From a bacterium (GTDB lineage: Bacteria > Patescibacteriota > Patescibacteriia > HK-STAS-PATE-3): a stretch of 64,000 nucleotides of DNA. Positions within the stretch are counted from its first letter, which is position 1. Each line of letters opens with the position of its first letter. The notes under the pieces are model-generated. The model saw only the letters and a list, made by a program, of their open reading frames with translations. It did not search any database and had not been told where the DNA came from. Below, one piece after another: positions 9,481 to 26,795 of this stretch. Both the position numbers and the translations under genes were made by a program. The DNA is taken from NCBI GenBank assembly GCA_043800725.1, contig JAZDMR010000011.1, positions 85,369-149,368 on the forward strand, given 5' to 3'.

Positions 9481-9482
9481 AA

Positions 9483-11241: not shown

Positions 11242-11339
11242 AAATAATTACTAATTACGATTACTAATTAGTAAAAAAACAAAACCAGTCGAGATAGTTC
11301 TTAATTCGTAATTAATAATCAGTAACCAGTATTTAACTT

Positions 11340-12494
11340 ATGCGGATTGGAATTGACTGTCGGACAATTTTGAATCCTTCGTCAGGAGAGGGAGCGGGAG
11401 TGGGACACTACACTTATTATTTGGTTAATAATCTGCTTAAGGTTGACCAGAAAAACGACTACGTACTTTTTTTCGACTCGGCCATGAAAGATACCAGCCT
11501 ATATCACCGGGAAAATTCTTACCCTCGTTATTTTCCATTTTCCCAGTATCGCCGCTTTTTGCCGTTTACTTATTCGCATATCCTTATTTCCGGCGCGATA
11601 AATAAAGAGAATTTGGATTTATATCATGCACCGGCCAACACCATCCCCTTAGGCTATAACAGGCCGTCAGTAGTCACGGTCCACGATCTGGCTATTTATC
11701 AGAATCCCAGCTGGTTTCCGTCCCAGGTTTTTTCCACGCGCTTGCTGGTGCCCAAGACGCTGCGGCGGGCGCGTTCGATAATCGCCGTATCAGAAAGCAC
11801 GGCTGAAGATTTACGGGAACTTTTCAATGTTCCGAATGACAAGCTGGAAGTTATTTATGAAGGAGTGGATATTATTCCGAACGAGAACGAAGAAGTTATT
11901 GACGTTAAGAAAAAATATAATTTACCGGACAAGTACTTATGCTTCGTAGGTACGCTGGAGCCGCGCAAGAATTTGATTCGTTTAATTCAAGCCTACGCAG
12001 ACTTGAAGGCCAAAGATGATCGCTTGTCCGACATACCGATTATCCTGGCCGGAAGAAAAGGCTGGCAAGCGGAAGATATTTTCAAAACAATTGCAGAACT
12101 GAAGCTTGGTAAAAGCATTAGAGACATCGGCTATGTAACCAAAAATGAAAAACTAGATCTGATAAAGCAAGCCGCGGCTTTTGTCTTCCCATCTTCCTAT
12201 GAAGGCTTTGGCTTACCTGTACTCGAAGCCATGGCCCTGGGCACTCCGGTGTTGACCAGCAACTTGTCCTCTTTACCGGAAATTGCCGGCAACGCCGCTT
12301 ATCAGATTAATCCGGAAGATACTTATGCCATTGCCGAGGGCCTGCAGCAGATTTTGTTTAATGACGAGCTAAGAAAAAAGCTGAGAGAAAAAGGCCCCAT
12401 CCAAGCCAAGAAGTTTACCTGGGAAAAAGTGGCCCTGAGAACCATAGCGCTGTATGAAAAGGCTGGCCAGCGCATAAAGAGTTACTCGATATAA
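11340..12494 (+). CDS. glycosyltransferase family 4 (GT4)
   Basis: ...EGFGLPVLEAMALGTPVLTSN...; typical GT-B/GT4 E-x7-E region. Confidence 0.8.
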   Translation: MRIGIDCRTILNPSSGEGAGVGHYTYYLVNNLLKVDQKNDYVLFFDSAMKDTSLYHRENSYPRYFPFSQYRRFLPFTYSHILISGAINKENLDLYHAPANTIPLGYNRPSVVTVHDLAIYQNPSWFPSQVFSTRLLVPKTLRRARSIIAVSESTAEDLRELFNVPNDKLEVIYEGVDIIPNENEEVIDVKKKYNLPDKYLCFVGTLEPRKNLIRLIQAYADLKAKDDRLSDIPIILAGRKGWQAEDIFKTIAELKLGKSIRDIGYVTKNEKLDLIKQAAAFVFPSSYEGFGLPVLEAMALGTPVLTSNLSSLPEIAGNAAYQINPEDTYAIAEGLQQILFNDELRKKLREKGPIQAKKFTWEKVALRTIALYEKAGQRIKSYSI

Positions 12495-12719
12495 GATATA
12501 AACAGCAATTAGTTTTCAACCGAAGTGGAGAAACCTAATTGTGGTTTCAAATACCAATCCGCACCGTCATCCTGAACTTGATTCAGGATCTCCAATTGGC
12601 ATTTGTGCAAAATGGAGATCCTTCGCGTTGCTCAGGAATACGTGTAACGGCGCGGATGCTATTACTGGAACAATCAGCTATCCCGTGGTAAGTTGTAGTT
12701 TGTAATCTTATTCATATTA

Positions 12720-15644
12720 TTGTCTACTGTGTCGAATTTACCCCAACTAGAAGAGCAAGTTCTTAAGCGCTGGAAGCAGGATAAAATATTCCAAAAAACC
12801 CTGGAAAAGACCAAGAAAGGTAAGCGTTTTGTGTTTTTTGAAGGGCCGCCGACCGCTAATGGTCAGCCTGGCATTCACCATGTCTTGGCCCGGGCCTTTA
12901 AAGATGTTATTCCGCGCTTCAAAACCATGCAGGGCTATTTTGTGGAGCGCAAAGCCGGCTGGGACACTCAAGGTTTGCCGGTTGAGTTAGCCGTGGAAAA
13001 GCAGATCGGCGTGTCCGGCAAGCAAGACATTGAAAAGTACGGCGTGGCCAAGTTTAATGAGGCCAGCAAAAAAAGCGTTTGGCAGTACAAAGAAGACTGG
13101 GAAAAATTAACAGAACGAATCGGGTTTTGGCTGGACATGGATAATCCTTACATTACTTATGAAAATGATTACATAGAATCGCTCTGGTGGATTTTCAAGC
13201 AAGCCTGGGATAAAAAATTACTGATCCAGGGACACAAAGTAGTGCCTCATTGCCCGCGCTGTGAAACAGCCTTGTCCTCCCATGAAGTTGCCCAGGGTTA
13301 TGAAAAAGTTAATGAGAATTCTGTTTATGTGAAATTTGAGTTAGTTGACGAACCAAATACGTTCGTATTGTCATGGACAACAACACCTTGGACTTTGCCA
13401 GGCAATCTTGCCTTGGCAGTGGGAAGTCACATCAAATATGTCAAAACGCCGAAAAATAATAAAGGTGAACAATATATTATAGCAATGGATCTTGCGAATC
13501 AAGTGTTAAAAGATGAAGAAAAACTTTCGGGTTTTAAAAGTAGAGGTGGGGATCCTATACAAATAATTAGTAGTGACCATCTAGTAGGTAAAAAATACAA
13601 ACCTTTATTTGAAATTGAAGAATTTAAAGATAACGACGCTGTTTATCAAATTTATAAGGCTGACTTTGTAACCACAGACGAAGGAACCGGCGTGGTTCAC
13701 ACAGCGGTCATGTACGGCGAGGATGACTATAACTTGGGCACCAAGGTTGGCCTGCCCAAGCATCACACAGTCGACGAAGCTGGCAAGTTCACGGATGACG
13801 TACCAGGCTTGGCCGGCCAGTTCGTGAAAAGTAAAAAGACTGAAGCTGGTATTGTTGAATTTCTTAAAGAAAAAGGTCTCATATATAAGGAACAAATGAA
13901 CGAGCATGACTATCCTTTTTGCTGGCGCTGTCATACTCCGCTATTGTACTATGCCAAAAATTCGTGGTTCTTGAAGATGTCGGCTTTGCGCGAGCAGTTG
14001 ATCAAGAATAATGAGCAGATCAACTGGGTGCCTGACTATATCAAGGATGGTCGGTTTGGCGAATGGCTAAGCGAGGTCAAAGATTGGGCCATATCCCGCG
14101 AACGCTACTGGGGCACGCCCATTCCTGTTTGGGAATGCGACAAATGCGACCAGAAGACCTGCATAGGTTCGTTTGAGGAATTAGCCAAGCAAACTGGCAA
14201 GAAGCTGCCTAAAGACTTTGATCCGCACAAACCGTTCATTGATGACTACACGATTACCTGCGACCAGTGCGGCGGCCTGATGAAGCGCATACCCGAGGTA
14301 GCAGACACTTGGTTTGATTCCGGCTCCATGCCTTTTGCGCAGTGGCATTATCCATTTGAGAACAAGGAGCGCATAGATAAGGGAGTTAGCTTTCCGGCTG
14401 ATTATATTGCCGAGGCCATTGATCAGACCCGAGGCTGGTTTTACACGCTTTTAGCAGTTTCCACAATTCTGGGCCATAAAGAACCGCCTTATAAAAACGT
14501 GATTTGCCTGGCGCATATCCTGGATACCAAAGGTAAAAAGATGAGTAAGCATATTGGCAATGTGGTCAACCCTTGGGAAGTTATTAACGAGTATGGCGCG
14601 GATGCTTTACGCTTTCAATTCTTTAGCATGAACCAGCCGGGCGATATTAAATTATTCGACAAAAAAGGCACCAGCGAGGTCGTAAAAAAAGTTTTCTTAA
14701 TGCTGTCCAACATTGTGTCTTTTTATAACCTACATGAAGGCAAGACGAACAAAGATCCCAAGAAGTCAGACAACATTCTCGATTTATGGGTGTTAATTAA
14801 AACTGAACTATTAACTCAGCGCGTTACCAAGCACTTGGAAGAATACAACATCACCAGTGCCAGCCGGCAGATCGCTGACTTTATCACAGAATTATCAACC
14901 TGGTATGTTCGCCGCAGCCGCGCTCGTTTCCGTAACCCAGGCGAAGATCAGGAATATGCTCAAGCCACTTTGCAGTATGTTTTACAGCGCGTAACTGTTT
15001 TACTAGCACCCTTTACGCCCATGCTGGCAGATTCGTTTTATCAGCAAACCGGTGGCCAGTTAGACAGCGTGCACTTGGAAGACTGGCCAGAAGCCAAGAT
15101 CAGCCAGGAAGCAGAATCAGTGACCGAAAATATGGACCAGGCACGCGCCATTGTTGAGCTGTCTCATGCCATCAGAGCCGAGGCCGGCATAAAAGTTCGC
15201 CAACCCTTAGGCCAGCTGGCAGTCAAGGGCAAGGCCATTAATAAAGTCTACTTAACGTTAGTTCAAGATGAGCTAAATGTCCACGAAGTAGTCTTTGCCC
15301 AAAAGTTACCGGATGAAAAAGAATGGCAGACCAAAGCTGACAAAGGTTATGAAATAGCCTTAGACACCACTATCACAGATGAACTGCGAGAGGCTGGCTG
15401 GGTTCGGGAATTAGTTCGTACTATTAATGACGAGCGTAAAAAGCTGGGCCTTCAGCGATCTGATCATGTTAATCTACAATACCAGTCAGATGACAAAGAA
15501 ATGCAGGGCTTATTCGATCGCTATGCTAAAGAGTTAAAAACAGCTGTAATTGCTGACGATATTGCCAAGGTTGATAAGCTGGAGCAGGGTAAAGAGGTAA
15601 AACTTGATAAGCATATAGTCCGTTTACAGGTAGTTATTAAATAA
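12720..15644 (+). CDS. ileS: isoleucyl-tRNA synthetase (TTG start)
   Basis: 974 aa; PPTANGQPGIHHVLAR (HIGH), KMSKHIGN (KMSKS), CP1 editing domain; no recognisable T-box leader upstream. Confidence 0.9.
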   Translation: MSTVSNLPQLEEQVLKRWKQDKIFQKTLEKTKKGKRFVFFEGPPTANGQPGIHHVLARAFKDVIPRFKTMQGYFVERKAGWDTQGLPVELAVEKQIGVSGKQDIEKYGVAKFNEASKKSVWQYKEDWEKLTERIGFWLDMDNPYITYENDYIESLWWIFKQAWDKKLLIQGHKVVPHCPRCETALSSHEVAQGYEKVNENSVYVKFELVDEPNTFVLSWTTTPWTLPGNLALAVGSHIKYVKTPKNNKGEQYIIAMDLANQVLKDEEKLSGFKSRGGDPIQIISSDHLVGKKYKPLFEIEEFKDNDAVYQIYKADFVTTDEGTGVVHTAVMYGEDDYNLGTKVGLPKHHTVDEAGKFTDDVPGLAGQFVKSKKTEAGIVEFLKEKGLIYKEQMNEHDYPFCWRCHTPLLYYAKNSWFLKMSALREQLIKNNEQINWVPDYIKDGRFGEWLSEVKDWAISRERYWGTPIPVWECDKCDQKTCIGSFEELAKQTGKKLPKDFDPHKPFIDDYTITCDQCGGLMKRIPEVADTWFDSGSMPFAQWHYPFENKERIDKGVSFPADYIAEAIDQTRGWFYTLLAVSTILGHKEPPYKNVICLAHILDTKGKKMSKHIGNVVNPWEVINEYGADALRFQFFSMNQPGDIKLFDKKGTSEVVKKVFLMLSNIVSFYNLHEGKTNKDPKKSDNILDLWVLIKTELLTQRVTKHLEEYNITSASRQIADFITELSTWYVRRSRARFRNPGEDQEYAQATLQYVLQRVTVLLAPFTPMLADSFYQQTGGQLDSVHLEDWPEAKISQEAESVTENMDQARAIVELSHAIRAEAGIKVRQPLGQLAVKGKAINKVYLTLVQDELNVHEVVFAQKLPDEKEWQTKADKGYEIALDTTITDELREAGWVRELVRTINDERKKLGLQRSDHVNLQYQSDDKEMQGLFDRYAKELKTAVIADDIAKVDKLEQGKEVKLDKHIVRLQVVIK

Positions 15645-15645
15645 C

Positions 15646-15939
15646 ATGTCAATTAAATTAAATCCAATTCGTGTAATAAAGAATGATGATAGGGGGATAA
15701 TTTATGATTGCGGAGAATCGAAGTTTATTGCCCGAGAGAAAGATACGATTTCTGCTGATCATAGTCATCCAGATCCAGAAGTATGCTATTTAGTGAAAGG
15801 TGAAATTGAGCTTACAATTGGTGATGAAACCCAGGTTGTCAAAGCCCCAGTCAGGTTTGAATCAGGTCCTAATGAATATCATAAGTTAGTTGCTCTGACT
15901 GATATTGAGTTGGTGATTGAACGTAAGGGAGAAGTATAG
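15646..15939 (+). CDS. small cupin-fold protein, putative
   Basis: 97 aa; ...ADHSHPDPEVCYLVKGEIELTIGDET... resembles a cupin_2 metal-site/beta-barrel motif. Confidence 0.4.
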   Translation: MSIKLNPIRVIKNDDRGIIYDCGESKFIAREKDTISADHSHPDPEVCYLVKGEIELTIGDETQVVKAPVRFESGPNEYHKLVALTDIELVIERKGEV

Positions 15940-15983
15940 TGAAGTTAGGGGATCATGTGGTAAGATTGGCCATAAAGAAATAA

Positions 15984-16072
15984 GCACATTCACAGCAAAA
16001 TAAGCTTGGGGGATGTTTATATGTTCACAGTTCAGACTATTTGACGTATAGTTTTTCACCTGAACAAGGAGG
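15984..16072 (+). repeat. ~89-bp leader repeat R1 copy A (second copy at 19855-19941), upstream of paralog A
   Basis: gcacattcacagcaaaataagcttgggggatg...cagactatttgacgta.agtttttcacctgaacaaggagg is shared by both copies; contains a possible promoter and the RBS. Confidence 0.8.
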
Positions 16073-16587
16073 CAAGAAATGGAATGTTTCACCTACCCGA
16101 TAGTAGGCGGAGACACTGATCCAGAGAAATGGACAAAGGCATTGGTGTCGCCAATAGTCCTTGGTAAGGGTCATCCGCCAATGGTTTTACAGACATTGGT
16201 TTCACTCACAGTGCTTGGGCAAAGGATATTTCCAGGATCATATCCCTTGGTTCCCGTACCGAAAACTGATCCGCCAAATGCTGAAGACGCCACCCATCAC
16301 GAGATCGAGATTGAAGTCGGCGAACTTATGCGCGTCAGTGGTCCGAGTGAAGAAGCGCCTAAAATCGCACTGGGGCTCCGATTTAGAGGGGTGGTCAGTA
16401 CCGAAGCAGCCACAAAGCTCCTACCCCCAGATGCCCCAAAGATTGGGGGTCCGTATGTCTGTGTTTGGGGCGTATTCACTTTTGGAGGAGAGGGCACGCA
16501 AATCATTCACTTCGAAACATAATTAGGAGGGGACGAACGCGAACACCGGGGAAGACAAATCTTCCCCATCCCCCAAGCTTATTTTGC
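15995..16587. repeat. cassette A bounded by perfect 20-bp inverted repeats (gcaaaataagcttgggggat at 15995-16014; atcccccaagcttattttgc at 16568-16587)
   Basis: The IRs enclose the leader, the 147-aa paralog gene and a ggggaagac..tcttcccc hairpin (16548-16567). Confidence 0.8.
16079..16522 (+). CDS. hypothetical protein, paralog A (147 aa) of 19948..20412
   Basis: Motifs shared with paralog B: IGG, KAL.SP.V, SLTV, H.I.I.V.EL, GPSE, LRF.G, VCVWGV.T.G; own RBS aaggagg. Confidence 0.5.
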   Translation: MECFTYPIVGGDTDPEKWTKALVSPIVLGKGHPPMVLQTLVSLTVLGQRIFPGSYPLVPVPKTDPPNAEDATHHEIEIEVGELMRVSGPSEEAPKIALGLRFRGVVSTEAATKLLPPDAPKIGGPYVCVWGVFTFGGEGTQIIHFET

Positions 16588-16607
16588 ATTAATGCTATTA
16601 TCAGCAC

Positions 16608-16673
16608 ATGTCCCAAACAGCTGAAACACAAGCCATCATCTTAGGGCGCCGGTCCATGAAAGAGTATGATCGG
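16608..16673 (+). pseudogene. duplicated recO 5' end (ATG + first ~22 codons), fused in frame to unrelated sequence (track ORF 16608..16859)
   Basis: 64-66 nt are ~85% identical to recO 21642-21707 (MSQTAETQAIILGRRSMKEYDR vs MSLTTETQAIILERRSMKEYDR), then diverge exactly where the R4 repeat begins. Confidence 0.6.
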
Positions 16674-16736
16674 ACAACAGCGTATATATGCTATCCAGAC
16701 CTCACGTCGGGACGGCGCACGATACGCCGAAACGTT
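16674..16736. repeat. ~61-63 bp direct repeat R4 copy 1 (second copy at 19316-19376)
   Basis: acaacagcgtatata..ctatcc.gac.tcacgtcgggacggcgcacgatacgc(cg)aaacgtt; the two copies bracket the precursor-rSAM-methyltransferase module. Confidence 0.8.
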
Positions 16737-16912
16737 GAGCTTGACAAAATGGAGGGAGTAGTAATACGATTAAAAATTAGATCTTTTACAAAAAACTACA
16801 AGTCCTATTTATTTTGTTGCTCTTTTGGGTCAATAAAGTTAAATGAAAATTCATCATGAATTTTCAACCCAGGCGGTAATAAAAGATTATAGGCAAGAAA
16901 GGAGAAAAACCC

Positions 16913-17032
16913 ATGAAGAACTCCAAGGTCGTGCAGCAAACCCCTAAGGTTTCGCTGAAAGCAACCAAGGTCAATGTCCGGAAGACCGGCATGAACTCTG
17001 GCATCACGGGCGGCGGCTACCAATGTTGCTGA
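16913..17032 (+). CDS. candidate RiPP precursor peptide, 39 aa: MKNSKVVQQTPKVSLKATKVNVRKTGMNSGITGGGYQCC (absent from the ORF track because it is shorter than 60 aa)
   Basis: AGGAG RBS 8 nt upstream of the ATG; Lys-rich leader-like N-part and Gly-rich C-terminus ending in Cys-Cys; stop 15 nt before a stable hairpin and 75 nt before the rSAM/SPASM gene. Confidence 0.55.
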   Translation: MKNSKVVQQTPKVSLKATKVNVRKTGMNSGITGGGYQCC

Positions 17033-17046
17033 ACCGATGAACCGAC

Positions 17047-17080
17047 GTGGCATATAACGGCTCCGGTCGCTATATGCCAC
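17047..17080 (+). promoter_or_regulatory. perfect 10-bp-stem hairpin (gtggcatata...tatatgccac) between precursor and maturase genes; putative attenuator / processing site
   Basis: Inverted repeat seen directly. It also creates the artefactual GTG start of track ORF 17047 and the antisense ORF ending at 17080. Confidence 0.5.
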
Positions 17081-17106
17081 GCCATTTTTCTTTACAGGAG
17101 GAAGTC

Positions 17107-18453
17107 ATGTCTCAAACGTATGTGCAGTTGACCGAACGTGCGATCTTTAAATCCCGCTATTATAAATGGTATCTCATTGATACCTCGCGGCGAGAGCGGG
17201 AACGCATCCTCATTGAGGGCGGTGCTGAACGGGTTTTACTTTTTCTCTTTGAAGGAAACACAATTGAGGTGGCGTGTGCTAGATTCGGGCTTGGGCGTGA
17301 CGATTTAGAGGAGTTCCTAAGGAATCTTCAAAACGAAAACGTTATCGCCATGAGCAATATCCCCGTAGTCTCAGCGACAAAGTGTCATGAAATCGAACCA
17401 CCGCTTGATAGTGTCAATGTGTTACTTACCAATACCTGCAACCTCCGGTGCGCACACTGCTACGTTTCTAGTGGAAAACCGATGACTGGTGAGCTTGATG
17501 GGGGTACCTGGATCAGAGTCTTACAGGAAGCAAGACGACTTGGAGTTTTCGAGCTTAATGTCTCAGGTGGTGAGCCGACATTGCATAGCGATTTTGTGAG
17601 AATTGCTGAATACATTGCGTCCGTGCCCACTTTCAATGCTAACCTAAATACCAATGGGGTATTACTGTGTCCCGAACACGAAGATGTAATAGCACGCGCC
17701 TTCACAAGTATTCAGGTAAGCCTCGACGATGCGGTGGCGGAAAAACACGATGCTTTCCGTGGATGCAAAGGTAGCTTCAGACGATCAATTGAAACAATCT
17801 CACGGCTCGTCGCTCGCGAGGCAGAGGTAAACATTGGTTTTACACTGACTCGCGAGAATCTCAACGCACTCAATGGGGTGGTTGAGCTCGCTGAACAGCT
17901 TGGTGCTACGGTTCTTAACATTGGGCTCGTGGCTAACATCGGGAGAGCAAACATTAATGCGCTTGTTCAGCCGATAGGCCCTTCTTCGGTACCCGAGGAT
18001 TCTTTTATAGAGCGAATGTATGAAAAGATGAAAGAGCTTGCTGTGCGATCCTTACGTGTGCGACTACTTTTACCTTTCCGGGTTCCAGGTAATGATGCTT
18101 TAATAGAACCACGAGAAAAGCGTTTTATCTGCGATGGTGATAACACTCAAATCCTTTACATCATGGCTAATGGAAGCACGATGCCATGTGACAAGTTACC
18201 AATCGAATCCTTCTCGTACGGTAACATTAAGGAGCACTCACTCCTAGATTTGTGGACATCACAACGGATGCAGGCGTTCAAACTAATGGGTTTGCGGCAG
18301 CTACCCAAATGCCGTGACTGTCATTATCTTGATATCTGTGGGGGTGCATGTGTGGCACGCGCATACCAAATGGGCGGATCACTTAAGTCTCCCGACTGGA
18401 CTTCATGCATGATTGCACAAAAGTTCTCTCAAGACAACACGGCGCAGGAGTAA
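17107..18453 (+). CDS. radical SAM/SPASM-domain peptide maturase with N-terminal PqqD-like RRE
   Basis: CNLRCAHCY (CxxxCxxC) rSAM motif. C-terminal Cys cluster ...CDGDN...CDKLP...CRDCHYLDICGGACVARAY (SPASM). N-terminal ...TIEVACARFGLGRDDLEEFLRNLQNENVI resembles a PqqD/RRE peptide-binding domain. Start moved to the ATG at 17107, which has an AGGAGG RBS. Confidence 0.85.
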   Translation: MSQTYVQLTERAIFKSRYYKWYLIDTSRRERERILIEGGAERVLLFLFEGNTIEVACARFGLGRDDLEEFLRNLQNENVIAMSNIPVVSATKCHEIEPPLDSVNVLLTNTCNLRCAHCYVSSGKPMTGELDGGTWIRVLQEARRLGVFELNVSGGEPTLHSDFVRIAEYIASVPTFNANLNTNGVLLCPEHEDVIARAFTSIQVSLDDAVAEKHDAFRGCKGSFRRSIETISRLVAREAEVNIGFTLTRENLNALNGVVELAEQLGATVLNIGLVANIGRANINALVQPIGPSSVPEDSFIERMYEKMKELAVRSLRVRLLLPFRVPGNDALIEPREKRFICDGDNTQILYIMANGSTMPCDKLPIESFSYGNIKEHSLLDLWTSQRMQAFKLMGLRQLPKCRDCHYLDICGGACVARAYQMGGSLKSPDWTSCMIAQKFSQDNTAQE

Positions 18454-18514
18454 TAATACATCACTCCTGCGCCTTTTTATTTGTGTTATAATGATTTAAA
18501 ATAACTTTAAAAGT

Positions 18515-19273
18515 ATGAAAAAACAACATTGGTGGAAAACAGCATTTAGCGAAACGTATCTCGCTGCGTTTAATGATATATATTCAGTACAGCGAGGAGA
18601 GAAAGAGGTGACGTTTCTTATTCGGGCGCTACGAATGAAGAAAGGTGCCCATATTCTTGATCTTGCTTGTGGGCAAGGCAGACACGCTATTCCACTTGCA
18701 CAACGTGGGATGCAGGTGACTGGTGTGGACGCCTCGGCATCTTTACTGCACGCGGCAAGGCAACGAGCGCGAACAGCGAGAGTGAGTGTATCTTTTGTGA
18801 GAGGAGATATGCGTACTTATCACAATGCCAAGAAGTACGATGCGGTACTCGTTCTCGGCAATTCATTCGGTTATTTTAATGATAAAGATAATAAAAGAGT
18901 GTTGTCTAACATTGCCACTTCCCTGAAAACTGGTGGTTGGCTTGTGTTAGATCTTTCAAATACGCCCGGTATGCTCCGACGGCAGGTTACTGGCGAATGG
19001 ACACAAAGGATTCCGAACGGAAAGTTAACAACACGCACGCTTAACTTTAATCCGGAAACGTTTCAGATAACATTACAATGGTGCATTTGGCAACATAAAA
19101 GAAAAACTTCATTCGATGGTATGTTGCGTTTGTATACGCCGCCAGAAATAAATCATCTGCTTATCGAACGAAATCTGATTCTTAAAAAGTCCTATGATTC
19201 CTTTGAAAATAAACCATTTAATATAAAATCAAGTCGTTATTTAATAGTTGCACAAAAAAATAGTCCCAAATAG
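18515..19273 (+). CDS. class I SAM-dependent methyltransferase
   Basis: ILDLACGQGRHAIPLAQRGMQVTGVDAS (motif I GxGxG) ... AVLVLGNSFGY (motif II region). Confidence 0.8.
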   Translation: MKKQHWWKTAFSETYLAAFNDIYSVQRGEKEVTFLIRALRMKKGAHILDLACGQGRHAIPLAQRGMQVTGVDASASLLHAARQRARTARVSVSFVRGDMRTYHNAKKYDAVLVLGNSFGYFNDKDNKRVLSNIATSLKTGGWLVLDLSNTPGMLRRQVTGEWTQRIPNGKLTTRTLNFNPETFQITLQWCIWQHKRKTSFDGMLRLYTPPEINHLLIERNLILKKSYDSFENKPFNIKSSRYLIVAQKNSPK

Positions 19274-19315
19274 TTATCCTGACGAAGGCAGGACAAAAGC
19301 TTTTAATTACATCTA

Positions 19316-19376
19316 ACAACAGCGTATATACACTATCCCGACTTCACGTCGGGACGGCGCACGATACGCAAACGTT
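19316..19376. repeat. direct repeat R4 copy 2 (see 16674-16736)
   Basis: ~95% identical to copy 1; lies between the methyltransferase and NUDIX genes. Confidence 0.8.
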
Positions 19377-19397
19377 ATCTGTAAAATTCTAAAATCT

Positions 19398-19796
19398 ATG
19401 GTTAAAATACGAGCGAATGTGCTGATAAAAGACCAGGAAAAAATTTTACTGATGCATAGAATAAAGAATGGTGCTGAATATTTTGTGTTGCCAGGCGGCA
19501 GCGTTGAATCAGGCGAAAGTATAATAGATGCAGCTATCCGTGAAGCAAAGGAAGAAACGGGGTTGGATGTGTCGATAGACAAAGAACTTTGGCAATTCCA
19601 CAATGATATGGATAGTAGAGATCATTACATTTTCCTTGTCACAAAATATTCTGGTAAATTAAAACTTGGCGGTCCTGAAATAGATAAAGTATCAGAGGTA
19701 AACAAATACTTACTTGAATGGCATGATTTGAGTAAACTAAAGGACGTAAAATTATTTCCAGTGGAAGTTAAAAAGAAAGTACTAGAGATCTTTTAA
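19398..19796 (+). CDS. NUDIX hydrolase
   Basis: GGSVESGESIIDAAIREAKEETGL is a canonical Nudix box (Gx5Ex7REUxEExGU). Confidence 0.8.
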   Translation: MVKIRANVLIKDQEKILLMHRIKNGAEYFVLPGGSVESGESIIDAAIREAKEETGLDVSIDKELWQFHNDMDSRDHYIFLVTKYSGKLKLGGPEIDKVSEVNKYLLEWHDLSKLKDVKLFPVEVKKKVLEIF

Positions 19797-19854
19797 GCTG
19801 AAATAAAAAAGCATCTGTTGGCATTTGGTAAATAAAACCTTAAAATAAACAAAG

Positions 19855-19941
19855 GCACATTCACAGCAAAATAAGCTTGGGGGATGTACATAAATACGGC
19901 CCAGACTATTTGACGTACAGTTTTTCACCTGAACAAGGAGG
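19855..19941 (+). repeat. leader repeat R1 copy B (see 15984-16072)
   Basis: ~90% identical to copy A, including the IR element and the RBS. Confidence 0.8.
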
Positions 19942-20462
19942 GAAGGAATGCCGCGCTATACGTACAATGTAATAGGAGGAAGTACAGCGTTTGAAGAATG
20001 GGCTAAGGCACTGAAGTCGCCAGTAGTTGATAATACTGGTGATTCACCCAGTATTGTGACTACCTTTGCTTCACTTACGGTAAGCAGTCGGCGGATTTTT
20101 CTGACAGGCGCTACAATGCGATTGTCGAAACGGCCGCCTGAACCCCCAGACCTCAAAGATGCGCTTACTCATAAGATCAAGATTGACGTTCTTGAACTGC
20201 AGAAATGCGAAGGGCCGAGTGAAGCCGAGCCGACCAAACCGTTGATGCTGAGGTTTGGTGGCCGGCTAGATACCAAAGCGGCTTTAGCAGTCATAGATCC
20301 TGAAAAGCCGGAAATTAGTGCTCCGGATGTCTGCGTCTGGGGCGTGGTTACCCTGGGCAACAAAGGGTGCCAGGGAATCATCCATATCGACCCAGAAACA
20401 CAAGAGTCATAGTTCAACCTCGGGGAAGACATTTTCTTCCCCATCCCCCAAGCTTATTTTGC
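19866..20462. repeat. cassette B bounded by the same perfect 20-bp inverted repeats (19866-19885 and 20443-20462)
   Basis: Same architecture as cassette A, including the ggggaagac..tcttcccc hairpin at 20422-20442. Confidence 0.8.
19948..20412 (+). CDS. hypothetical protein, paralog B (154 aa) of 16079..16522
   Basis: See paralog A; roughly 35-40% identity by eye, with collinear motifs. Confidence 0.5.
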   Translation: MPRYTYNVIGGSTAFEEWAKALKSPVVDNTGDSPSIVTTFASLTVSSRRIFLTGATMRLSKRPPEPPDLKDALTHKIKIDVLELQKCEGPSEAEPTKPLMLRFGGRLDTKAALAVIDPEKPEISAPDVCVWGVVTLGNKGCQGIIHIDPETQES

Positions 20463-20551
20463 TTACAAAAAAGTGGGGGAGGCTCGGTGTCCTCCCCCGT
20501 GAGTGAGGATTCGGGCAAATGCCCATCATTGTGACTGAGAATTCATCCGAA

Positions 20552-20580
20552 ACGACTTGTGCGGGATTCGAACCCGCACT
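20552..20580 (-). other. tRNA-like T-arm/acceptor fragment (GCGGG-TTCGAAT-CCCGC) without a complete tRNA; possible att-site remnant
   Basis: Canonical T-stem-loop on the minus strand; no D or anticodon arm could be folded from the flanking sequence. Confidence 0.25.
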
Positions 20581-20700
20581 GACTACCGAGATGTCAACAG
20601 CCAGTAAAGTCTGTCACACTCAGTTCGAGCCTATTCCAAACCGAAATATATGTCAATATTTGGGTATTTTCATAATAGTGCTATATTCAAAATCCAATGC

Positions 20701-20722
20701 CCCAGACAGCTGAAACACGAGC
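20701..20722 (+). repeat. third, partial copy of the recO 5' segment (cccagacagctgaaacacgagc)
   Basis: Matches recO 21645-21670 and the copy at 16611-16640 with 2-3 mismatches. Confidence 0.6.
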
Positions 20723-20940
20723 TAAAATTACTATGGGAGTATTTGGGTACCTTTTTAAAGTAGGGAAGTGGTTGACAATCGATAAGACAATTGATGAATA
20801 CTATATGACAATTTAGTTTACAATTACAAATAAGTACTTGACAATTAATTCCTACGGAATGAGTAGATGGGATTACATAACTTCAATGACTTTTGTTTCA
20901 CAATAGATATGCCCTATATCCCACAGCTGAAATCAAGAAT

Positions 20941-21240
20941 ATGAAAATCCAAATAAGCAGTGATATAGAAAAGTTTATCTCAACCCTTGAAAAACCAACC
21001 ATTGCGAAAATTTTTCGAACTGTTGATTTACTTGAAATATTTGGTAATCGACTTGGAATGCCACACAGTAAAAAGGTAAAAGGGGGGATTTTTGAGCTTC
21101 GTATTCGCGGCCAACAGGAAGTTCGTATTCTCTATACCTTTCAAAAAAGAGAAATTGTCTTACTACATGGGTTTATTAAGAAATCTCAGAAAACCCCAAA
21201 GCGTGAAATTAAATTAGCTATTAAAAAACTACAAAACTGA
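20941..21240 (+). CDS. RelE/ParE-superfamily toxin of the phage Gp49/HigB-like group
   Basis: ...GGIFELRIRGQQEVRILYTFQKREIVLLHGFIKKSQKTPKREI... matches the Gp49-like/HigB pattern; the start may be the upstream ATG at 20893 instead. Confidence 0.6.
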   Translation: MKIQISSDIEKFISTLEKPTIAKIFRTVDLLEIFGNRLGMPHSKKVKGGIFELRIRGQQEVRILYTFQKREIVLLHGFIKKSQKTPKREIKLAIKKLQN

Positions 21241-21326
21241 CATAATATAATATCTCTTGACATAATATAACATATACGTTATATTTATAATAATTACTAT
21301 AAGGTTATATAAACGAGATAAAACCT

Positions 21327-21611
21327 ATGAAATCCTATAAAACTCTAAAAAGCCAATTACTCAAAGATAAGGGAATCAAAAAAGCCTATGATGAATTAGG
21401 ACCTGAGTTTGAATTGGTGCAACTGGTTATTAAAAAGCGTCTTGAACAAGGGCTAACGCAGGCAGAGCTGGCAAAAAAGATTGGTACTAAACAGGCAGCG
21501 ATTTCCCGTCTGGAGAGCGGTACGTCAAATCCCACAGTGTCTTTTTTACAAAAGGTGGCAGAAGCATTAGGTACGCGACTAAATATTTCAATTTCTACAT
21601 CTCCTCAATAA
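21327..21611 (+). CDS. XRE-family HTH antitoxin (HigA-like)
   Basis: ...GLTQAELAKKIGTKQAAISRLESG... helix-turn-helix; lies immediately downstream of the toxin. Confidence 0.65.
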   Translation: MKSYKTLKSQLLKDKGIKKAYDELGPEFELVQLVIKKRLEQGLTQAELAKKIGTKQAAISRLESGTSNPTVSFLQKVAEALGTRLNISISTSPQ

Positions 21612-21641
21612 TCTGAATGTCTGAAATAAAGATACAAGTAT

Positions 21642-22394
21642 TTGTCCCTGACCACTGAAACACAAGCTATCATCCTAGAACGCCGGTCCATGAAAGAGTA
21701 TGATCGGCGGGTTGTGGTATTTACCAAGAACTTTGGCCGGTTGGATTTGATCGCCAAAGGCACTTTGCGATTGGCTAGTAAGTTGGCCGGGTCGCTGGAG
21801 CCTTTAACAGAGACTAATCTTAATATCGCGCGCGGTAGATTTGATCGAGTTATAGGATCGGTTACTCGTGAGGCCTGGCCCAGACTGCATAATGATTTAG
21901 AAGCATTAGCGGCAGCCAGCTTCTTGGCTCAAGTGACTAGTCAGCTGGCTCAGAAAGAAAGTCCTGATCCGGCTATTTATAATCAGCTGCAATTCAGCTT
22001 AGCTCAGCTTAATGAAATTCCCAGTGACCAGTTTACAATAATTGTCAGGCGGTATTTATGGCAGCTGTTTGATCACTTAGGATTCAAGCCGCAGCTTTCT
22101 AAGTGCGTGCGCTGTGGGAAAAGCGAATCTATTAAATATACTTATGTTTCAGAAGCTGGCGGGGCAGTTTGCGAGCAGTGCCAGACGGCGGGCAGTAAGG
22201 GGATTGCCTTGACAGCCAATACGGTTGAGGCTTTAAACAGCTTGCTTAATAATAAGACAGACGCTACTCCGGCGAACAAGACTACAGACAGAACCATTGC
22301 TCAAATAATTGATCAAACGTTGCTAATACATACTCAGAAGCATTTGCCTACCGATTCCTTTTGGCGCAGCATCAACAGGTTTATAAATCAATAA
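21642..22394 (+). CDS. recO: DNA repair protein RecO (TTG start)
   Basis: N-terminal OB-fold region plus zinc finger CVRCGKS...CEQC; 250 aa. Confidence 0.85.
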   Translation: MSLTTETQAIILERRSMKEYDRRVVVFTKNFGRLDLIAKGTLRLASKLAGSLEPLTETNLNIARGRFDRVIGSVTREAWPRLHNDLEALAAASFLAQVTSQLAQKESPDPAIYNQLQFSLAQLNEIPSDQFTIIVRRYLWQLFDHLGFKPQLSKCVRCGKSESIKYTYVSEAGGAVCEQCQTAGSKGIALTANTVEALNSLLNNKTDATPANKTTDRTIAQIIDQTLLIHTQKHLPTDSFWRSINRFINQ

Positions 22395-22415
22395 TCTGCT
22401 ATAATACTGCCAGTT

Positions 22416-24335
22416 ATGGTAAAAAAGATTTACAAACCAAAGAAGATTGATCGGACTGAATCAATCAAGGGAATCAGCCAGGAGGAGAAAGAACGAATCA
22501 AGGCTTTTCAAGCTGTTTTGGAGCAGTCTTCCACTGAAAATGGCAGAAAAACAGATATGACCAAGATGGTCAGAAAAAAACCCAGGCATTGGGGCCGGAT
22601 TATCTTCTTTTTATCTTTATCGTTGATTGCCTTGGCCAGCGTGGCCGGGTATTTTTATTTTACCTCGGCGGAGAAGTTCACCGGCTCTTTGGTGCGCTTA
22701 AATTTGGAAGTATCTGAGCAGGTGGCTTCCGGCGGCGAAACCACCCTAACGATATTTTATGAAAATGGCGAGGCGGTCACTTTACGCGAAGCTCAGCTGG
22801 CTGTCCGCTATCCTGACGGCTTTACTTACTTATCCGCCGATATCAAGCCGTCCAATGAAGGCCTGAATGCCTTTGAGCTGGGCGATATCAAGCCGGGCGT
22901 GGGCAAACAATTAGAAATTCGCGGTAGGATAGTTGGCGATGTGGGCAGTCAAAGCAATTTTGACGTTACCTTAAGCTATGTGCCGGCAACTTTTAACTCT
23001 GAATTTTTAACAGAGGCCAGCAAAACAATAACAATTACCGATACGACTTTAGGCTTGGTATTTGACGGGTCTCAGCGGGCAATTCCGGATAATGAAATTA
23101 CCTATACTATTGATTATGAAAATGCTTCTAGCGAGGCTATTCGCCAGGCCCGCATTAGCTTGGAAATCCCTGAAGCATTTGTCATTAGACGAACTGAGCC
23201 GGAAACCGAAGGGATTCGCAGCTGGACAATTCATGAATTAGAGCCCGGCGAAACAGGTACGATAACTTTTACCGGGGTGTTTAGCGGTACGGCCGGGGAA
23301 TTAAATGAGCTGATTGTCAGGGCAGGATTGATTTCCACCGAAGGAACTTTTCAGCTGCAAACCGAGAAAAGGCTTATTGTCCAAATTGTCCAGCCGGAGA
23401 CTTCAGTTGACCTGACCATCAACGGATCGGAAAAAGACCAAACTACCAGCCTGGGCAGCACTTTGAATTATGTTGTCAGTTATTCCAATCAGACCGATGA
23501 AGTGCTTCGCGACATGGTGATAAGCGCTAAATTAGAAGGCCAAGTAATTGACTGGGACAGTTTAGTAAACACCCGCGATGCTCAAGTCGAGGACGGAACC
23601 CTGACCTGGACCAAGGATCAAGTTGATGATTTGGCAGAACTTACACCCGGCGCCGAAGGCTCGGTCAGTTTTTCAGTCCGAGTAGTTACCGGCCTGGCAA
23701 TCGATTCAGATTTAACAAATTTGGAAATTATCAGCAGCGGAAGATTGGAAGCCAAGTCAGATGATTTAGGCGAAAATTTAATTACAGCGGAGACAGAACA
23801 GATCACCCTGAAAGTCAGCACGCAGCTTCAGTTAACTACCGAGGCCCGCTATTATACTGATGATTTTACCAAGCTGGGCGAGGGTCCTTTGCCGCCTGTC
23901 GTAGACCAGACAACCAAATATCGGCTTTACTGGTATTTGGATAATACTCTTAACAATACGGAGGATGTCAGCGTAGTAGCCACGATTCCGCCGGAGGTAT
24001 TTTTCACCGGACGATACTTAGATGCTTCGGTGGGCAATATCCAGTTTCAAGCTGAGACCAGAAAAGTAATTTGGGATATTTCCAAGATTCCTTCCGGAAC
24101 AGGCCGTGATTTACCCAGCTTGCTGGCTACCTTTGAATTATCCATCACTCCAGGAACGAGCGATGTCGGCAGCATCTTAGTGTTAACTGACGCAACCACG
24201 GCTACGGGCACCGATGCGTTCACCGAGTCGGAAATCTCGGTTACTCAAGATGTTTTGACCACCAATCTTGATGCTGATCAATATGCCCAAGGGCAAGGCA
24301 AGGTTGAACTGGCTGAGCTGGAAGCAGAGGATTAA
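22416..24335 (+). CDS. large membrane-anchored surface protein with repeated beta-rich (DUF11-like) domains
   Basis: N-terminal TM helix (IIFFLSLSLIALASVAGYFYF); 639 aa rich in T/S/E/V; repeated ~90-aa modules. Confidence 0.5.
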   Translation: MVKKIYKPKKIDRTESIKGISQEEKERIKAFQAVLEQSSTENGRKTDMTKMVRKKPRHWGRIIFFLSLSLIALASVAGYFYFTSAEKFTGSLVRLNLEVSEQVASGGETTLTIFYENGEAVTLREAQLAVRYPDGFTYLSADIKPSNEGLNAFELGDIKPGVGKQLEIRGRIVGDVGSQSNFDVTLSYVPATFNSEFLTEASKTITITDTTLGLVFDGSQRAIPDNEITYTIDYENASSEAIRQARISLEIPEAFVIRRTEPETEGIRSWTIHELEPGETGTITFTGVFSGTAGELNELIVRAGLISTEGTFQLQTEKRLIVQIVQPETSVDLTINGSEKDQTTSLGSTLNYVVSYSNQTDEVLRDMVISAKLEGQVIDWDSLVNTRDAQVEDGTLTWTKDQVDDLAELTPGAEGSVSFSVRVVTGLAIDSDLTNLEIISSGRLEAKSDDLGENLITAETEQITLKVSTQLQLTTEARYYTDDFTKLGEGPLPPVVDQTTKYRLYWYLDNTLNNTEDVSVVATIPPEVFFTGRYLDASVGNIQFQAETRKVIWDISKIPSGTGRDLPSLLATFELSITPGTSDVGSILVLTDATTATGTDAFTESEISVTQDVLTTNLDADQYAQGQGKVELAELEAED

Positions 24336-24336
24336 C

Positions 24337-25452
24337 ATGCCACAGAATAGCAAGTTTCAGCTTGTTCAAGGATCAAAAAAGAGCCAGGCCCGGATGGGCC
24401 GGTTAAAAACCAAGCACGGCCTGGTTGCCACGCCGGCTTTTATGCCCATTGCCACGCGCGGCTCAGTACGTTCTCTGGAGATTGATGCGCTTACCGCGCT
24501 TAAAGCCTCGATAATTCTGTCCAACACTTATCATCTCTGGATCAAGCCGGGTTTAAATTTAATTAACCGAGCCGGAGGTTTGCATAAGTTTATGAATTGG
24601 GCCGGACCGATCTTAACTGATTCAGGCGGCTATCAGGTTTTTAGTCTGTCCAAGTTTAGAAAAATTACTGATCAGGGCGTTAAATTCCGAGACAATCAAG
24701 ACGGCACCATGAGACTACTTACGCCAGAACGGGCCATGTCTATTCAGGCAATTTTGGGTTCTGACATTGCCATGGTCTTGGATGAAGTGCCGTCGTATAA
24801 CAGCAGTCGCCAGGTTATTCAAAGTGCGGTTACTCGATCAACGGCCTGGGCCAAGCGCTGCTTAAAAGCCAAGTCGTTACCTGGCCAGCTGGTTTTCAGT
24901 ATTATCCAGGGCGGAACACACAAAGATTTGCGAATTAACCATGCCCGTGAATTAATCAAGCTGCCTTTTGACGGTTATGCAGTAGGCGGCTTGGCCATGG
25001 GCGAGTCAACCCAGATGCAGGCCAAAATGATTTACCAGGCATTAAATTGGGTTGTGCCGGAATTACCAATAAATAAACCGCGCTACTTAATGGGCGTGGG
25101 GCCGCCGGATCAGATTGTCCAGGCTGTAAGTCAAGGCATTGATATGTTTGACTGCGTTTTGCCCACTCGCAATGCCCGACATGAATTATTATATATTTGG
25201 AAAAGCGGAAATTTGAACGGCAAGTTTTGGGAGAGTTTAAATATTTCCAAATCGCGTTATAAAAACGATCTCAGGCCGATTGATCAAAGGTGCGATTGCT
25301 CAACCTGTTTATCTTACACTCGAGCTTACCTGCGCCACTTATTCGCTACCCAGGATCCCTTGGCCCAGCGCTTGGCCACCATTCATAATCTCAGATTTTA
25401 TTTGAGATTAATGGACGAGATCCGCCAGGCTATTAAGCAAGGCAAGTTGTGA
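24337..25452 (+). CDS. tgt: queuine tRNA-ribosyltransferase
   Basis: ...LTDSGGYQVFSL..., zinc site CDCSTCLSYTRAYLRHLF; start moved to the ATG at 24337, directly after the upstream stop. Confidence 0.9.
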   Translation: MPQNSKFQLVQGSKKSQARMGRLKTKHGLVATPAFMPIATRGSVRSLEIDALTALKASIILSNTYHLWIKPGLNLINRAGGLHKFMNWAGPILTDSGGYQVFSLSKFRKITDQGVKFRDNQDGTMRLLTPERAMSIQAILGSDIAMVLDEVPSYNSSRQVIQSAVTRSTAWAKRCLKAKSLPGQLVFSIIQGGTHKDLRINHARELIKLPFDGYAVGGLAMGESTQMQAKMIYQALNWVVPELPINKPRYLMGVGPPDQIVQAVSQGIDMFDCVLPTRNARHELLYIWKSGNLNGKFWESLNISKSRYKNDLRPIDQRCDCSTCLSYTRAYLRHLFATQDPLAQRLATIHNLRFYLRLMDEIRQAIKQGKL

Positions 25453-25682
25453 TGAAGAGTATAAAAATATCAGTGAAAGTTATTCCAGGCTCTTCGGAGA
25501 ATAAGGTGATTGTTGGTGACGAGGGCAATATTCAAGTACGATTAACTGCTTTGGCAGACCAGGGGAAAGCCAATAAAGCGTTAATCAAATTACTGGCCAA
25601 ACATTTTAAAACAGCCCAATCAAGCATCACAATCACACGGGGCGGTAAATCAAAACAGAAAATTGTATTAATACAAAAGTAA
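25449..25682 (+). CDS. DUF167 (YggU) family protein
   Basis: ...VKVIPGSSENKV...GKANKALIKLLAKHF...ITRGGKSKQKIV matches the YggU/UPF0235 pattern. Confidence 0.65.
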   Translation: MMKSIKISVKVIPGSSENKVIVGDEGNIQVRLTALADQGKANKALIKLLAKHFKTAQSSITITRGGKSKQKIVLIQK

Positions 25683-25716
25683 ACGCCCGGCTCTATGGAA
25701 AAGAAACGGGCGTTGG
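25683..25716. terminator. bidirectional hairpin terminator (acgcccg...cgggcgt) between convergent genes
   Basis: 9-bp GC stem; T/A runs on both sides. Confidence 0.5.
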
Positions 25717-26265
25717 TTAGGTTTTATTGTCAATTTCCGGCTGGACAATTTCTATTACGCAGAGCTCTTGGCCCCACTCAATAGTATCGTTGTGTCGGGG
25801 CAGCACTTTTACAATCCTGATGGCATCAAAATCCCGGGTTGGCAAGTAGCGATTTTTACCCAAGCACAGCCAGATGATTTCAAGATTAATTTCAATCAGA
25901 TTATCCAGTACGACCATCAAAGTAATCCGATCGCCCTTTTTATACTGGCCAAGAATTTTTTGGTCAGGATTGTAGAATCTGCCTACCGCAAGCGCTCGGA
26001 GCACCAATCTTCTGTCTTGAGGCAATTCAATTTTGGATTGGGGAGGAAGAGCGACATGGACGTTTTGGCTAGGCAGCGGGGAATCTTTAACGATTGTTTG
26101 AGATAGGCGATAGCGATATCTGGTGAATAATGATGTCCAGGAATTGCACGGCCCGTTTTGCTGATCAGATGATTTGGCAGCGGAGATTGTTTGATCAAGG
26201 TGTTTTTGAAATTCATTTATCCGGCCGAAAATCCAGCGATCTATCAAAGAACGAATAAACTTCAT
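25717..26265 (-). CDS. hypothetical protein (182 aa)
   Basis: Long ORF with an RBS; no family recognised. Confidence 0.35.
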   Translation of the reverse strand: MKFIRSLIDRWIFGRINEFQKHLDQTISAAKSSDQQNGPCNSWTSLFTRYRYRLSQTIVKDSPLPSQNVHVALPPQSKIELPQDRRLVLRALAVGRFYNPDQKILGQYKKGDRITLMVVLDNLIEINLEIIWLCLGKNRYLPTRDFDAIRIVKVLPRHNDTIEWGQELCVIEIVQPEIDNKT

Positions 26266-26425
26266 ATCATGACCTCGTTTATTTTTTTGTTTATTTAATT
26301 GGCCTGTCTTGGCCCTTTGGTCGCTTGTATCTCATTATATTTCTGATGTATTGTCCATATTGCCAAACTGGGAAAAAAGTGCTATAATACAATCATTAAT
26401 AAAAAAATGAAAACGAAAAAATTCC

Positions 26426-26794
26426 ATGCCTAGCAAGACACAGTCACATTACTCTGTAACCTTTTTATTAAAGGAACTGCTTTTTGATGTGGCTATGTTT
26501 CCGGTCTGGTGGTATTCCAGTGGGTTGAAAAAAGTCGCCCAATTTTGGCTAAGGGGGGTTTTAAAGCATGCTGAACAGCTGTCGCTTAAAATCTGGCTGA
26601 AAAACATGTTCACTCCCATGTATGGCGATTACACCAAGAGCGGCAAGGCTATCAGTTTTTTTCTGCGCATTATAGTTTTATTCTATCGAACTGTTGCCCT
26701 GATTATCTGGGTGGCAGTTTTTAGCGTTTTCGTAATTTTATGGGCGCTGCTTCCACCTATCGTTGCTTATGCCATTGTCCGACAGTTCAACTAA
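26426..26794 (+). CDS. hypothetical membrane protein
   Basis: 122 aa, 3 TM helices; preceded by a ttg...tataat promoter. Confidence 0.4.
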   Translation: MPSKTQSHYSVTFLLKELLFDVAMFPVWWYSSGLKKVAQFWLRGVLKHAEQLSLKIWLKNMFTPMYGDYTKSGKAISFFLRIIVLFYRTVALIIWVAVFSVFVILWALLPPIVAYAIVRQFN

Positions 26795-26795
26795 T

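Follow-up and report, generated by a model that had tools for sequence, protein, structure and literature searches.

Integration of dusA islands replaces the 5' end of the target gene and leaves a remnant 5' end behind (PMC4482086), and tycheposons grow by accretion, such that partial copies of the target lie scattered and the newest element is found next to the target (10.1101/2020.12.28.424599). In broader terms, integration hotspots, for example those of E. coli, are variable islets between conserved core genes (PMC2617782). Here we compare with these systems an islet between the genes ileS and recO of a metagenome-assembled bacterial genome of the Patescibacteriota (GenBank assembly GCA_043800725.1, contig JAZDMR010000011.1, positions 85,369 to 149,368 of the forward strand; this whole stretch of 64,000 nucleotides is hereafter the window, and coordinates without further specification refer to it). 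In reduced genomes of the candidate phyla radiation (CPR), classical mobile elements appear to be scarce. The islet is of a kind that is already known, an integration hotspot or genomic islet, and its sole unusual part is a pair of orphan cassettes with conserved flanks. It also contains two spare copies of the 5' end, or head, of recO, for which we tentatively favor, with a probability of about 0.4, an origin as flank fragments brought by additive recombination between haplotypes.

A reused junction between ileS and recO

The islet is embedded in the gene order argS-GT4-ileS-recO-CLIPPER-TGT-ClpB, which is shared in full by the relatives L014 and L018 and, from ileS onward, by L019-21. In these relatives, whose RecO proteins are 46% (L014), 41% (L018) and 44% (L019-21) identical to that of the window, only 3-5 nt separate the ileS stop from the recO start, and there is not a single gene between the two in L014, L018 and L019. 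A fourth relative, L016 (Candidatus Nomurabacteria CP060223, RecO identity 48%), carries at the same place a 1-kb insert with a zeta-toxin-like gene. Given the gap-free ileS-recO junction in some relatives and a different insert in another, the segment 15645-21641 is an insertion at a junction of a Parcubacteria-type CPR genome that has been filled more than once. Thus, between the same conserved flanks, three states of the gap are seen, namely empty, differently filled and multiply filled. The first-pass annotation of this DNA had proposed an insertion hotspot upstream of recO and had held that the lack of an empty site in relatives would speak against it; the empty sites in L014, L018 and L019-21, together with the different insert in L016, bear the proposal out. 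RecO homologues are rare, and RecO-based locus scans of genome contigs and metagenome contigs yielded only distant, uninformative relatives.

The fixed core flanks, the other cargo or empty site elsewhere and the mosaic composition, with the GC content varying from 30% to 52% over the islet, are all shared with hotspots and tycheposons, and so are the defence- or conflict-type cargo (toxin-antitoxin, ribosomally synthesized and post-translationally modified peptide (RiPP) and NUDIX genes) and the degenerate remnants of targets, including a partial tRNA. Unlike in those systems, the islet is only 6 kb long and resides in a reduced CPR genome, the remnants are heads of a protein-coding gene, and there are no fragments of an integrase. 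The islet represents a clean, small example of the way in which reduced CPR genomes acquire accessory genes where a gap between two housekeeping genes stays in place. Its parts, including the open reading frames (ORFs), are collected in Table 1.

Table 1. Features of the islet and its flanks, in window order, and the insertion sequence (IS) of the sibling genome
Feature	Position	Strand	Remarks
ileS	12720-15644	+	left conserved flank; tRNA-synt_1 and Anticodon_1 domains; abuts recO in L014, L018, L019
Small cupin gene	15646-15939	+	first gene of the islet; Cupin_2, E = 1.8e-7; absent from the ileS-recO junction of relatives
Cassette 1	15984-16587	+	leader; left inverted repeat 15995-16015; orphan ORF 16079-16522 (147 aa); 3' stem-loop; right inverted repeat 16567-16587
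recO head, copy A	16588-16673	+	extended -10-like box TGCTATTAT, then 66 nt from the 5' end of a recO allele with ATG start and codons QTA
Hairpin repeat, copy 1	16669-16736	+	left boundary of the RiPP module
RiPP precursor peptide	16913-17032	+	39 aa; C-terminal end ...VRKTGMNSGITGGGYQCC; core also in L022 and L026
Radical-SAM/SPASM peptide maturase	17107-18453	+	Radical_SAM and SPASM domains
SAM-dependent methyltransferase	18515-19273	+	Methyltransf_25, E = 1.7e-22; conserved partner of the radical-SAM gene
Hairpin repeat, copy 2	19311-19376	+	right boundary of the RiPP module
NUDIX hydrolase gene	19398-19796	+	NUDIX, E = 9e-18; weak match to defence candidate PDC-S07
Cassette 2	19855-20463	+	leader; left inverted repeat 19865-19886; orphan ORF 19948-20412 (154 aa); stem-loop; right inverted repeat 20442-20463
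IS66-family element (sibling genome)	sibling L001 1171-2252, at window 20454-20461		1,081 bp; 305-aa transposase, DDE_Tnp_IS66 25.5 bits
200-bp filler (unit 2 only)	20464-20665	-	tRNA 3' remnant (about 20556-20580), then terminator-like hairpin 20498-20475
recO head, copy B	20666-20722	+	extended -10-like box TGCTATATT, then first 26 nt of recO, allele type as in copy A
HigB-like (Gp49/RelE) toxin gene	20941-21240	+	Gp49, E = 1.6e-23
Helix-turn-helix (HTH) antitoxin gene	21327-21611	+	HTH_3, E = 5.6e-18
recO	21642-22394	+	right conserved flank; RecO_N and RecO_C; TTG start; N-terminus MSLTTET...

Is the mosaic real?

As the genome was assembled from a metagenome, repeats that were collapsed or wrongly joined might have produced a false mosaic. 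The window was compared with the sibling assembly GCA_043827125.1, a near-identical genome, and with Logan contigs of SRR26275510, both reached through exact-protein look-ups. The sibling reproduces the window segments 6079-17353 and 19292-32394 at 99.8-100% identity, with both cassettes, both spare heads and both hairpin repeats. The five repeat families described in the first-pass annotation are all present at roughly the coordinates given there, above what chance would produce, and their layout is real. The sibling breaks at 17353 and 19292, and hence the segment 17354-19291 is seen in the window only; however, the radical-SAM ORF runs unbroken across 17353, and 16976-19259 is wholly collinear with L022, a contig that carries a homologous RiPP module. 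Because an independent assembly reproduces the layout, an assembly artefact is scarcely credible.

Outside the islet the sibling is collinear with the window; inside it, there are an IS66-family insertion and two contig breaks. The IS66-family element, which is absent from the whole window, has 24-bp terminal repeats (GGCATAAGGTACAAAAACGTAGGC) and an 8-bp duplication (TTATTTTG), and is lodged in the right inverted repeat of cassette 2. Its presence in one genome and absence from the other points to recent transposition within the population. The contig of the sibling and one Logan contig both end exactly at 17353, within the radical-SAM gene, the next contig of the sibling begins at 19292, and the methyltransferase protein is recorded only for the assembly of the window. 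An IS-mediated deletion, or an IS-flanked segment, between 17353 and 19292 in the sibling is possible. In all three assemblies (window, sibling and Logan), only the integrated form of the islet is seen.

The spare heads of recO

Each of the two cassettes is followed by a promoter-like -10 box and a head of recO, and this composite unit occurs twice, at 15984-16673 and at 19855-20722. Given that the cassette and the -10-like box precede both copy A and copy B, the repeated unit comprises at least 690 bp and is not merely a core sequence. The -10-like boxes lie 7-10 nt 5' of the ATG and are directed into the downstream genes. Copy A (16608-16673) matches the head of the real recO (21642-21707) in 57 of 66 nt, with all nine mismatches located within nt 1-39 and nt 40-66 identical, a clustering that has p ~0.009 if mismatches are uniformly distributed. 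The recO-like part of copy B amounts to 26 nt (20697-20722), over which A and B differ at three positions, A and recO at five, and B and recO at six. Furthermore, in codons 3-5, A and B share derived bases that encode QTA; the real recO head, L013 and L016 encode LTT, and the N-terminus type of the recO in the window is also present in P0003 and P0005. Being closer to each other than to recO and sharing QTA, A and B are sister copies, and they are cut at different points of the gene, A at +66 and B at +26. The occurrence of the recO 5' end in three places, as annotated at first, is thus confirmed, except that copy B starts at 20697, 4 nt before the 20701 originally given, and the sequence also confirms that the recO similarity of the first copy ends exactly where the hairpin repeat, the 60-bp repeat of the annotation, begins.

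So could these heads be targets regenerated by repeated site-specific integration at the 5' end of recO, as the first-pass annotation had it? The reading has only partial support, and the mechanism as stated is unsupported; the alternative given in the same annotation, recombination among the repeats, may hold. What recurs is the whole unit of cassette, -10 box and head, not only a core; the recO-attached head is of the LTT type of the relatives and is not obviously element-supplied; and the heads are cut differently. In L013 (RecO identity 84%), HigB'-HigA-recO is collinear with the window at a DNA identity of 83%, and no identity breakpoint is detected at recO +66: the best breakpoint along the comparison falls at ~22081, inside recO, and the third-position identity is patchy. 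The comparison gives no reason to assign HigBA and the recO head a history of their own, a possibility that we considered as well. In L016, no second recO head was found next to the zeta-toxin insert. The notion that the recO repeats bound the cargo does not hold for cassette 1 and the cupin gene, which lie upstream of copy A, outside the recO-bounded segment. Domain scans of the islet ORFs and of the ORFs scanned across the 64-kb window revealed no integrase or recombinase domain, and the islet ORFs contain no transposase, in agreement with what had been annotated.

The main rival of the reading that we favor is a more specific version of this idea, in which one or more islands of the dusA type integrated at a core contained in the initial 66 nt of recO and have since decayed, the integrase being lost or acting in trans, such that copy A is attL, the recO head is attR and copy B is the scar of a second event. 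Likenesses to dusA islands (PMC4482086) include an insertion site in the opening codons of a housekeeping gene, an upstream 5' remnant, an intact gene and empty sites in relatives. Copy A and the recO head make up 65-66-nt imperfect direct repeats that bound 5 kb, and similarity halts exactly at the junction, with the identical 27 nt on the junction side and the nine mismatches farther off. There is a precedent among dusA islands for a replaced 5' end with a leftover remnant (PMC4482086) and one among tycheposons for accretion with scattered partial target copies (10.1101/2020.12.28.424599). However, a tyrosine integrase gene, which dusA islands have at one end, is absent from the scanned ORFs, and the non-coding gaps of the islet are too short to conceal the remains of such a gene. 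The recO-attached head is not a new 5' end supplied by the island but the ancestral one, of the type common to L013 and L016. The spare heads are sister copies, each behind one cassette of 600 bp, and copy B lacks the presumed core (nt 40-66). Accretion would place the newest element by the target, whereas here the gene pair that adjoins recO is HigBA, shared with L013 at 83% DNA identity, with no breakpoint of divergence at +66, and the L016 insert occupies the same junction without any duplicate. With these facts on both sides, we regard a decayed dusA-type integration as possible but somewhat unlikely.

Additive recombination between haplotypes, which we tentatively prefer, appears to be compatible with the allelic relationships of the heads as well as with their different ends. 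We infer the donor haplotypes, the order of events and the mechanism of recombination from what is directly observed, that is, the repeats, the empty sites, the structure of the units, the relations between recO-head alleles, the boundaries of the modules and the IS polymorphism. In this scenario, the islet would be an immobile, fossil patchwork that resulted from several separate additive recombination events rather than from one element. The toxin-antitoxin pair beside recO would be the old component. At least two later events would have imported DNA from haplotypes in which an orphan cassette was located directly upstream of recO, with each imported piece ending within the first 26-66 nt of the donor recO, so that A and B would be carried-along donor flanks, or junction scars, and not regenerated targets. 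The differing truncation points (+66 and +26) are as expected for illegitimate ends. In a further event, a circle would have recombined with a resident hairpin, leaving the three-gene RiPP module between two hairpin copies, and the present-day change would proceed by IS insertion or deletion, possibly along with homologous recombination among the repeats.

Several considerations weigh against this scenario. The similarity of A and B upstream of the heads is short and weak. No donor haplotype, in which a cassette would immediately precede a complete recO, was found in this barely sampled lineage, and a full HMMER search of 1.84 billion representative proteins retrieved no member of the cassette family beyond the two paralogues themselves. 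It is not obviously likely that two independent additive events would both end inside the recO head, and the 27-nt perfect block on the junction side of A resembles an att core. Furthermore, each repeat is present in only two copies, and hence there is no covariation to draw upon. If such stacking of haplotypes did occur, it would imply that islets can arise, and scars that resemble targets can remain, through additive recombination that needs no dedicated integrase, and since these scars mimic att sites, caution would be called for in the prediction of island boundaries.

The orphan cassettes

The two cassettes show a peculiar combination of highly diverged ORFs and nearly invariant flanks. 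The ORFs (16079-16522 and 19948-20412) share 44% identity at the protein level and 55% at the nucleotide level, and the differences per codon position amount to 0.47, 0.29 and 0.59. Judging from a ratio of nonsynonymous to synonymous substitution rates (dN/dS) of ~0.24, with the proportion of synonymous differences (pS) saturated at 0.71, these are real coding sequences under purifying selection that diverged long ago. Between the cassettes, identity is 93-100% for the leader, 3' stem-loop and inverted repeats. The leader repeat of about 89 bp found in the first analysis (15984-16072 and 19855-19941) stands, with 89% identity over 89 nt. The inverted repeat GCAAAATAAGCTTGGGGGATG occurs in four perfect copies, at 15995(+), 16567(-), 19866(+) and 20442(-), with none expected by chance; the repeats do bound the two paralogous cassettes, as annotated, but are 21-22 nt long rather than 20.

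The cassette proteins match nothing in Pfam, NCBIfam, PADLOC, PHROGs or the PDB sequences, a word-index search with the cassette protein returned only the query itself, and the AlphaFold model (pLDDT 40.6) is unusable. Viral contigs contained no relative of the cassette family and no match to the inverted repeat, the A/B-type recO head, the tRNA remnant or the core of the hairpin repeat; the hairpin core also had no match in JGI metagenome contigs. Interpretation of the cassettes as transposons or insertion sequences was rejected: there is no transposase domain or homologue and no target duplication, and conservation extends 10 nt past the left repeat.

The saturation of the ORFs next to near-identical flanks shows that this is not a simple local duplication decaying neutrally; either strong selection acts on the flanks, or the ORFs are alleles of long standing that lie between flanks which recombine. 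Another hypothesis is a segmental duplication in situ of the whole unit (cassette, promoter and recO head), after which the ORFs diverged and the flanks were kept as functional cis elements. The flanks might in that case form an RNA panhandle of 5' and 3' arms, provide promoter or operator sites, or represent captured recO promoters by which the inserted genes are driven. The two occurrences of the unit indeed have the same orientation and are 3.87 kb apart; if co-transcribed, the arms of the inverted repeat would pair into a 21-bp stem that encloses the entire ORF in each cassette; the -10-like boxes at A and B are directed into downstream genes; and the ORFs themselves evolve under purifying selection. 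Yet this hypothesis requires that the flanks and the pseudogenic recO heads be far more constrained than synonymous sites (0-12% difference versus pS = 0.71), leaves unaccounted for the non-resident allele type of the duplicated heads and faces the difficulty that the promoter-like site in cassette 1 is located downstream of the left inverted repeat, such that a transcript starting there would exclude this repeat. In-situ duplication thus appears distinctly unlikely.

The four 21-bp sites also bring to mind shufflons and invertons, in which identical sites of alternating orientation surround gene-sized segments, and it could be proposed that these sites, and perhaps the hairpins, serve an unlinked recombinase that would act in trans to invert, excise or exchange the segments, much as in shufflons, invertons or integrons. 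The sites are perfectly conserved despite the saturated divergence of the ORFs, the hairpins show a stem-spacer-stem layout with bulged bases, and two near-identical genomes differ structurally at this locus. However, the cassette segments do not differ in orientation between the window, the sibling and the Logan contigs, and the structural differences consist of the IS insertion and contig breaks that are not at the repeats. The scanned ORFs include no recombinase, the hairpins fail the two-box attC consensus and have no match among viral contigs or JGI metagenome contigs, and, unlike in shufflons and invertons, the cassettes contain complete ORFs, each with its own ribosome-binding site, so that inversion would be no obvious switch. 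A live system of this kind is quite improbable. There is likewise only an outside chance that the 21-bp sites, the leader and the stem-loop define an undescribed kind of CPR cassette that is subject to allele exchange or inversion by an unlinked recombinase, or else forms an mRNA panhandle. Under such a reading, the region upstream of recO may be where strongly diverged orphan alleles are exchanged or accumulate, with the spare heads as by-products of the exchange. The orphan cassettes with their conserved flanks are an oddity concrete enough to be tested, and they may be of wider interest.

The RiPP module and the hairpin repeats

The RiPP module is enclosed by two copies of a hairpin repeat of ~66 nt, which corresponds to the 60-bp direct repeat of the earlier annotation and is upheld as similarity beyond chance: 16669-16727 and 19311-19369 match at 90%, and the similarity extends to ~16736 and 19376. 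The 25-nt core of the repeat occurs exactly twice in the window, with no occurrence expected by chance. The hairpin is imperfect, and the folding of copy 2 has z = -4.2 on the plus strand and -5.65 on the minus strand. DNA homology of the module to L022 spans 16914-19259, exactly between the two hairpins. No repeats or hairpins flank the homologous module in L022, which indicates that the hairpins are not part of the RiPP module elsewhere. A module between two hairpin copies is what a circle would leave on recombining with a copy already in place, and the simplest reading is that the hairpin was duplicated in this way.

The hairpins resemble the attC sites of clusters of attC sites lacking integron-integrases (CALIN) in that two similar imperfect hairpins with bulged bases bracket the module in the same orientation, each with one attC-like box. 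Copy 2 ends in ATCTAAC / GTTATCT and copy 1 in ATCGGAC / GTTGAGC, so that neither has both boxes of the consensus (RYYYAAC and GTTRRRY), and an assignment to attC was rejected on this ground; neither hairpin is among the two-box attC candidates of the window. Unlike in CALIN, moreover, the enclosed module consists of three genes and a promoter-like site of its own (16741-16770), there are only two hairpins and no IntI-like gene was found in the scanned ORFs, and the junction between the recO head and the hairpin lies at the wrong end for attC recombination.

As in radical-SAM/SPASM RiPP clusters, a short precursor with a conserved core is followed by a maturase and an adjacent methyltransferase, and the unit is kept in other CPR genomes. 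The core VRKTGMNSGI[TS]GGG[YS]QCC is conserved upstream of maturases with 68-70% identity in L022 (about 5760-5920) and L026 (5204-5359), and a methyltransferase gene adjoins the radical-SAM gene in L022-L025 and L026. The maturase, which has an N-terminal extension preceding the Radical_SAM and SPASM domains, has homologues of 65-72% identity across CPR genomes. The family of precursor, maturase and methyltransferase is widespread in the CPR, with 54 homologues at E<=1e-30. Precursor, maturase and methyltransferase recur jointly in Buchananbacteria and other CPR contigs in unrelated contexts; exact look-ups of the radical-SAM protein and the methyltransferase revealed no alternative context. 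Unlike in known clusters of this type, the module sits between hairpins in a different genomic context, and the best NCBIfam matches of the maturase are peptide maturases that all remain below the curated cut-offs. The module (the ...GGGYQCC precursor, maturase and methyltransferase) represents a CPR-recurrent family that we could not assign to a known class, and it too may be of wider interest.

Other cargo and the filler of the second unit

Pfam annotation agrees with the cargo named at first, namely the RiPP-like module, the two paralogous cassettes and a HigBA-like pair. The last of these combines a toxin domain with an adjacent small HTH gene, as expected of a type II toxin-antitoxin system, and the NCBIfam RelE/ParE model is below its cut-off. 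The HigBA-recO junction is old: it is collinear with that in L013 at 83% DNA identity. Between the two genes, the segment 21238-21285 contains a tandem TGACATAATATAAyAT pair and an 11-of-12 sigma-70-like promoter; it is 94% identical to L013, more conserved than the coding body of recO, and is probably the operator and promoter for the antitoxin. In L016, the insert (7127-7989 of that contig) carries an opposite-strand 50-aa ORF and the zeta-toxin/AAA-kinase-like gene; in both filled junctions, that of the window and that of L016, the gene that adjoins recO is toxin-related.

The filler of the second unit includes the tRNA-like T-arm fragment that had been noticed before. It lies on the minus strand at ~20556-20580, where GCGGGTTCGAATCCCGC and then ACAAGTCG correspond to the T-arm and the 3' acceptor strand. 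ARAGORN calls nothing here and Rfam gives no match at E<=5, so this piece is at most a 3' remnant; over the islet as a whole, Rfam and ARAGORN detect no known RNA family. A 10-bp repeat, TATTTGGGTA, around copy B and a repeat resembling TTATTTTG around the filler were dropped from consideration, with ~0.6 such 10-bp pairs expected by chance in 6 kb.

Elsewhere in the window

A tmRNA (94 bits) with SmpB immediately upstream is encoded on the minus strand at 3524-4437 and a tRNA-Asp at 1796-1871; these genes are ordinary and unrelated to the tRNA-like remnant of the islet. The window also contains a complete diversity-generating retroelement (30628-33168), with the variable repeat at 31107-31240, the template repeat at 31609-31742, bAvd at 31764-32111 (minus strand) and the reverse transcriptase at 31903-33168 (plus strand). 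The bAvd and reverse-transcriptase domains were confirmed, and the target ORF (30628-31242) has no Pfam match. Template and variable repeats differ at 11 positions, all 11 of which are adenines in the template. The retroelement is flanked by an inverted pair of 154-nt repeats (29876-30029 and 33414-33567) with 98% identity, in which two of the three mismatches are between A and another base; this pair could represent either a further set of variable and template repeats or the end of a gene that was duplicated.

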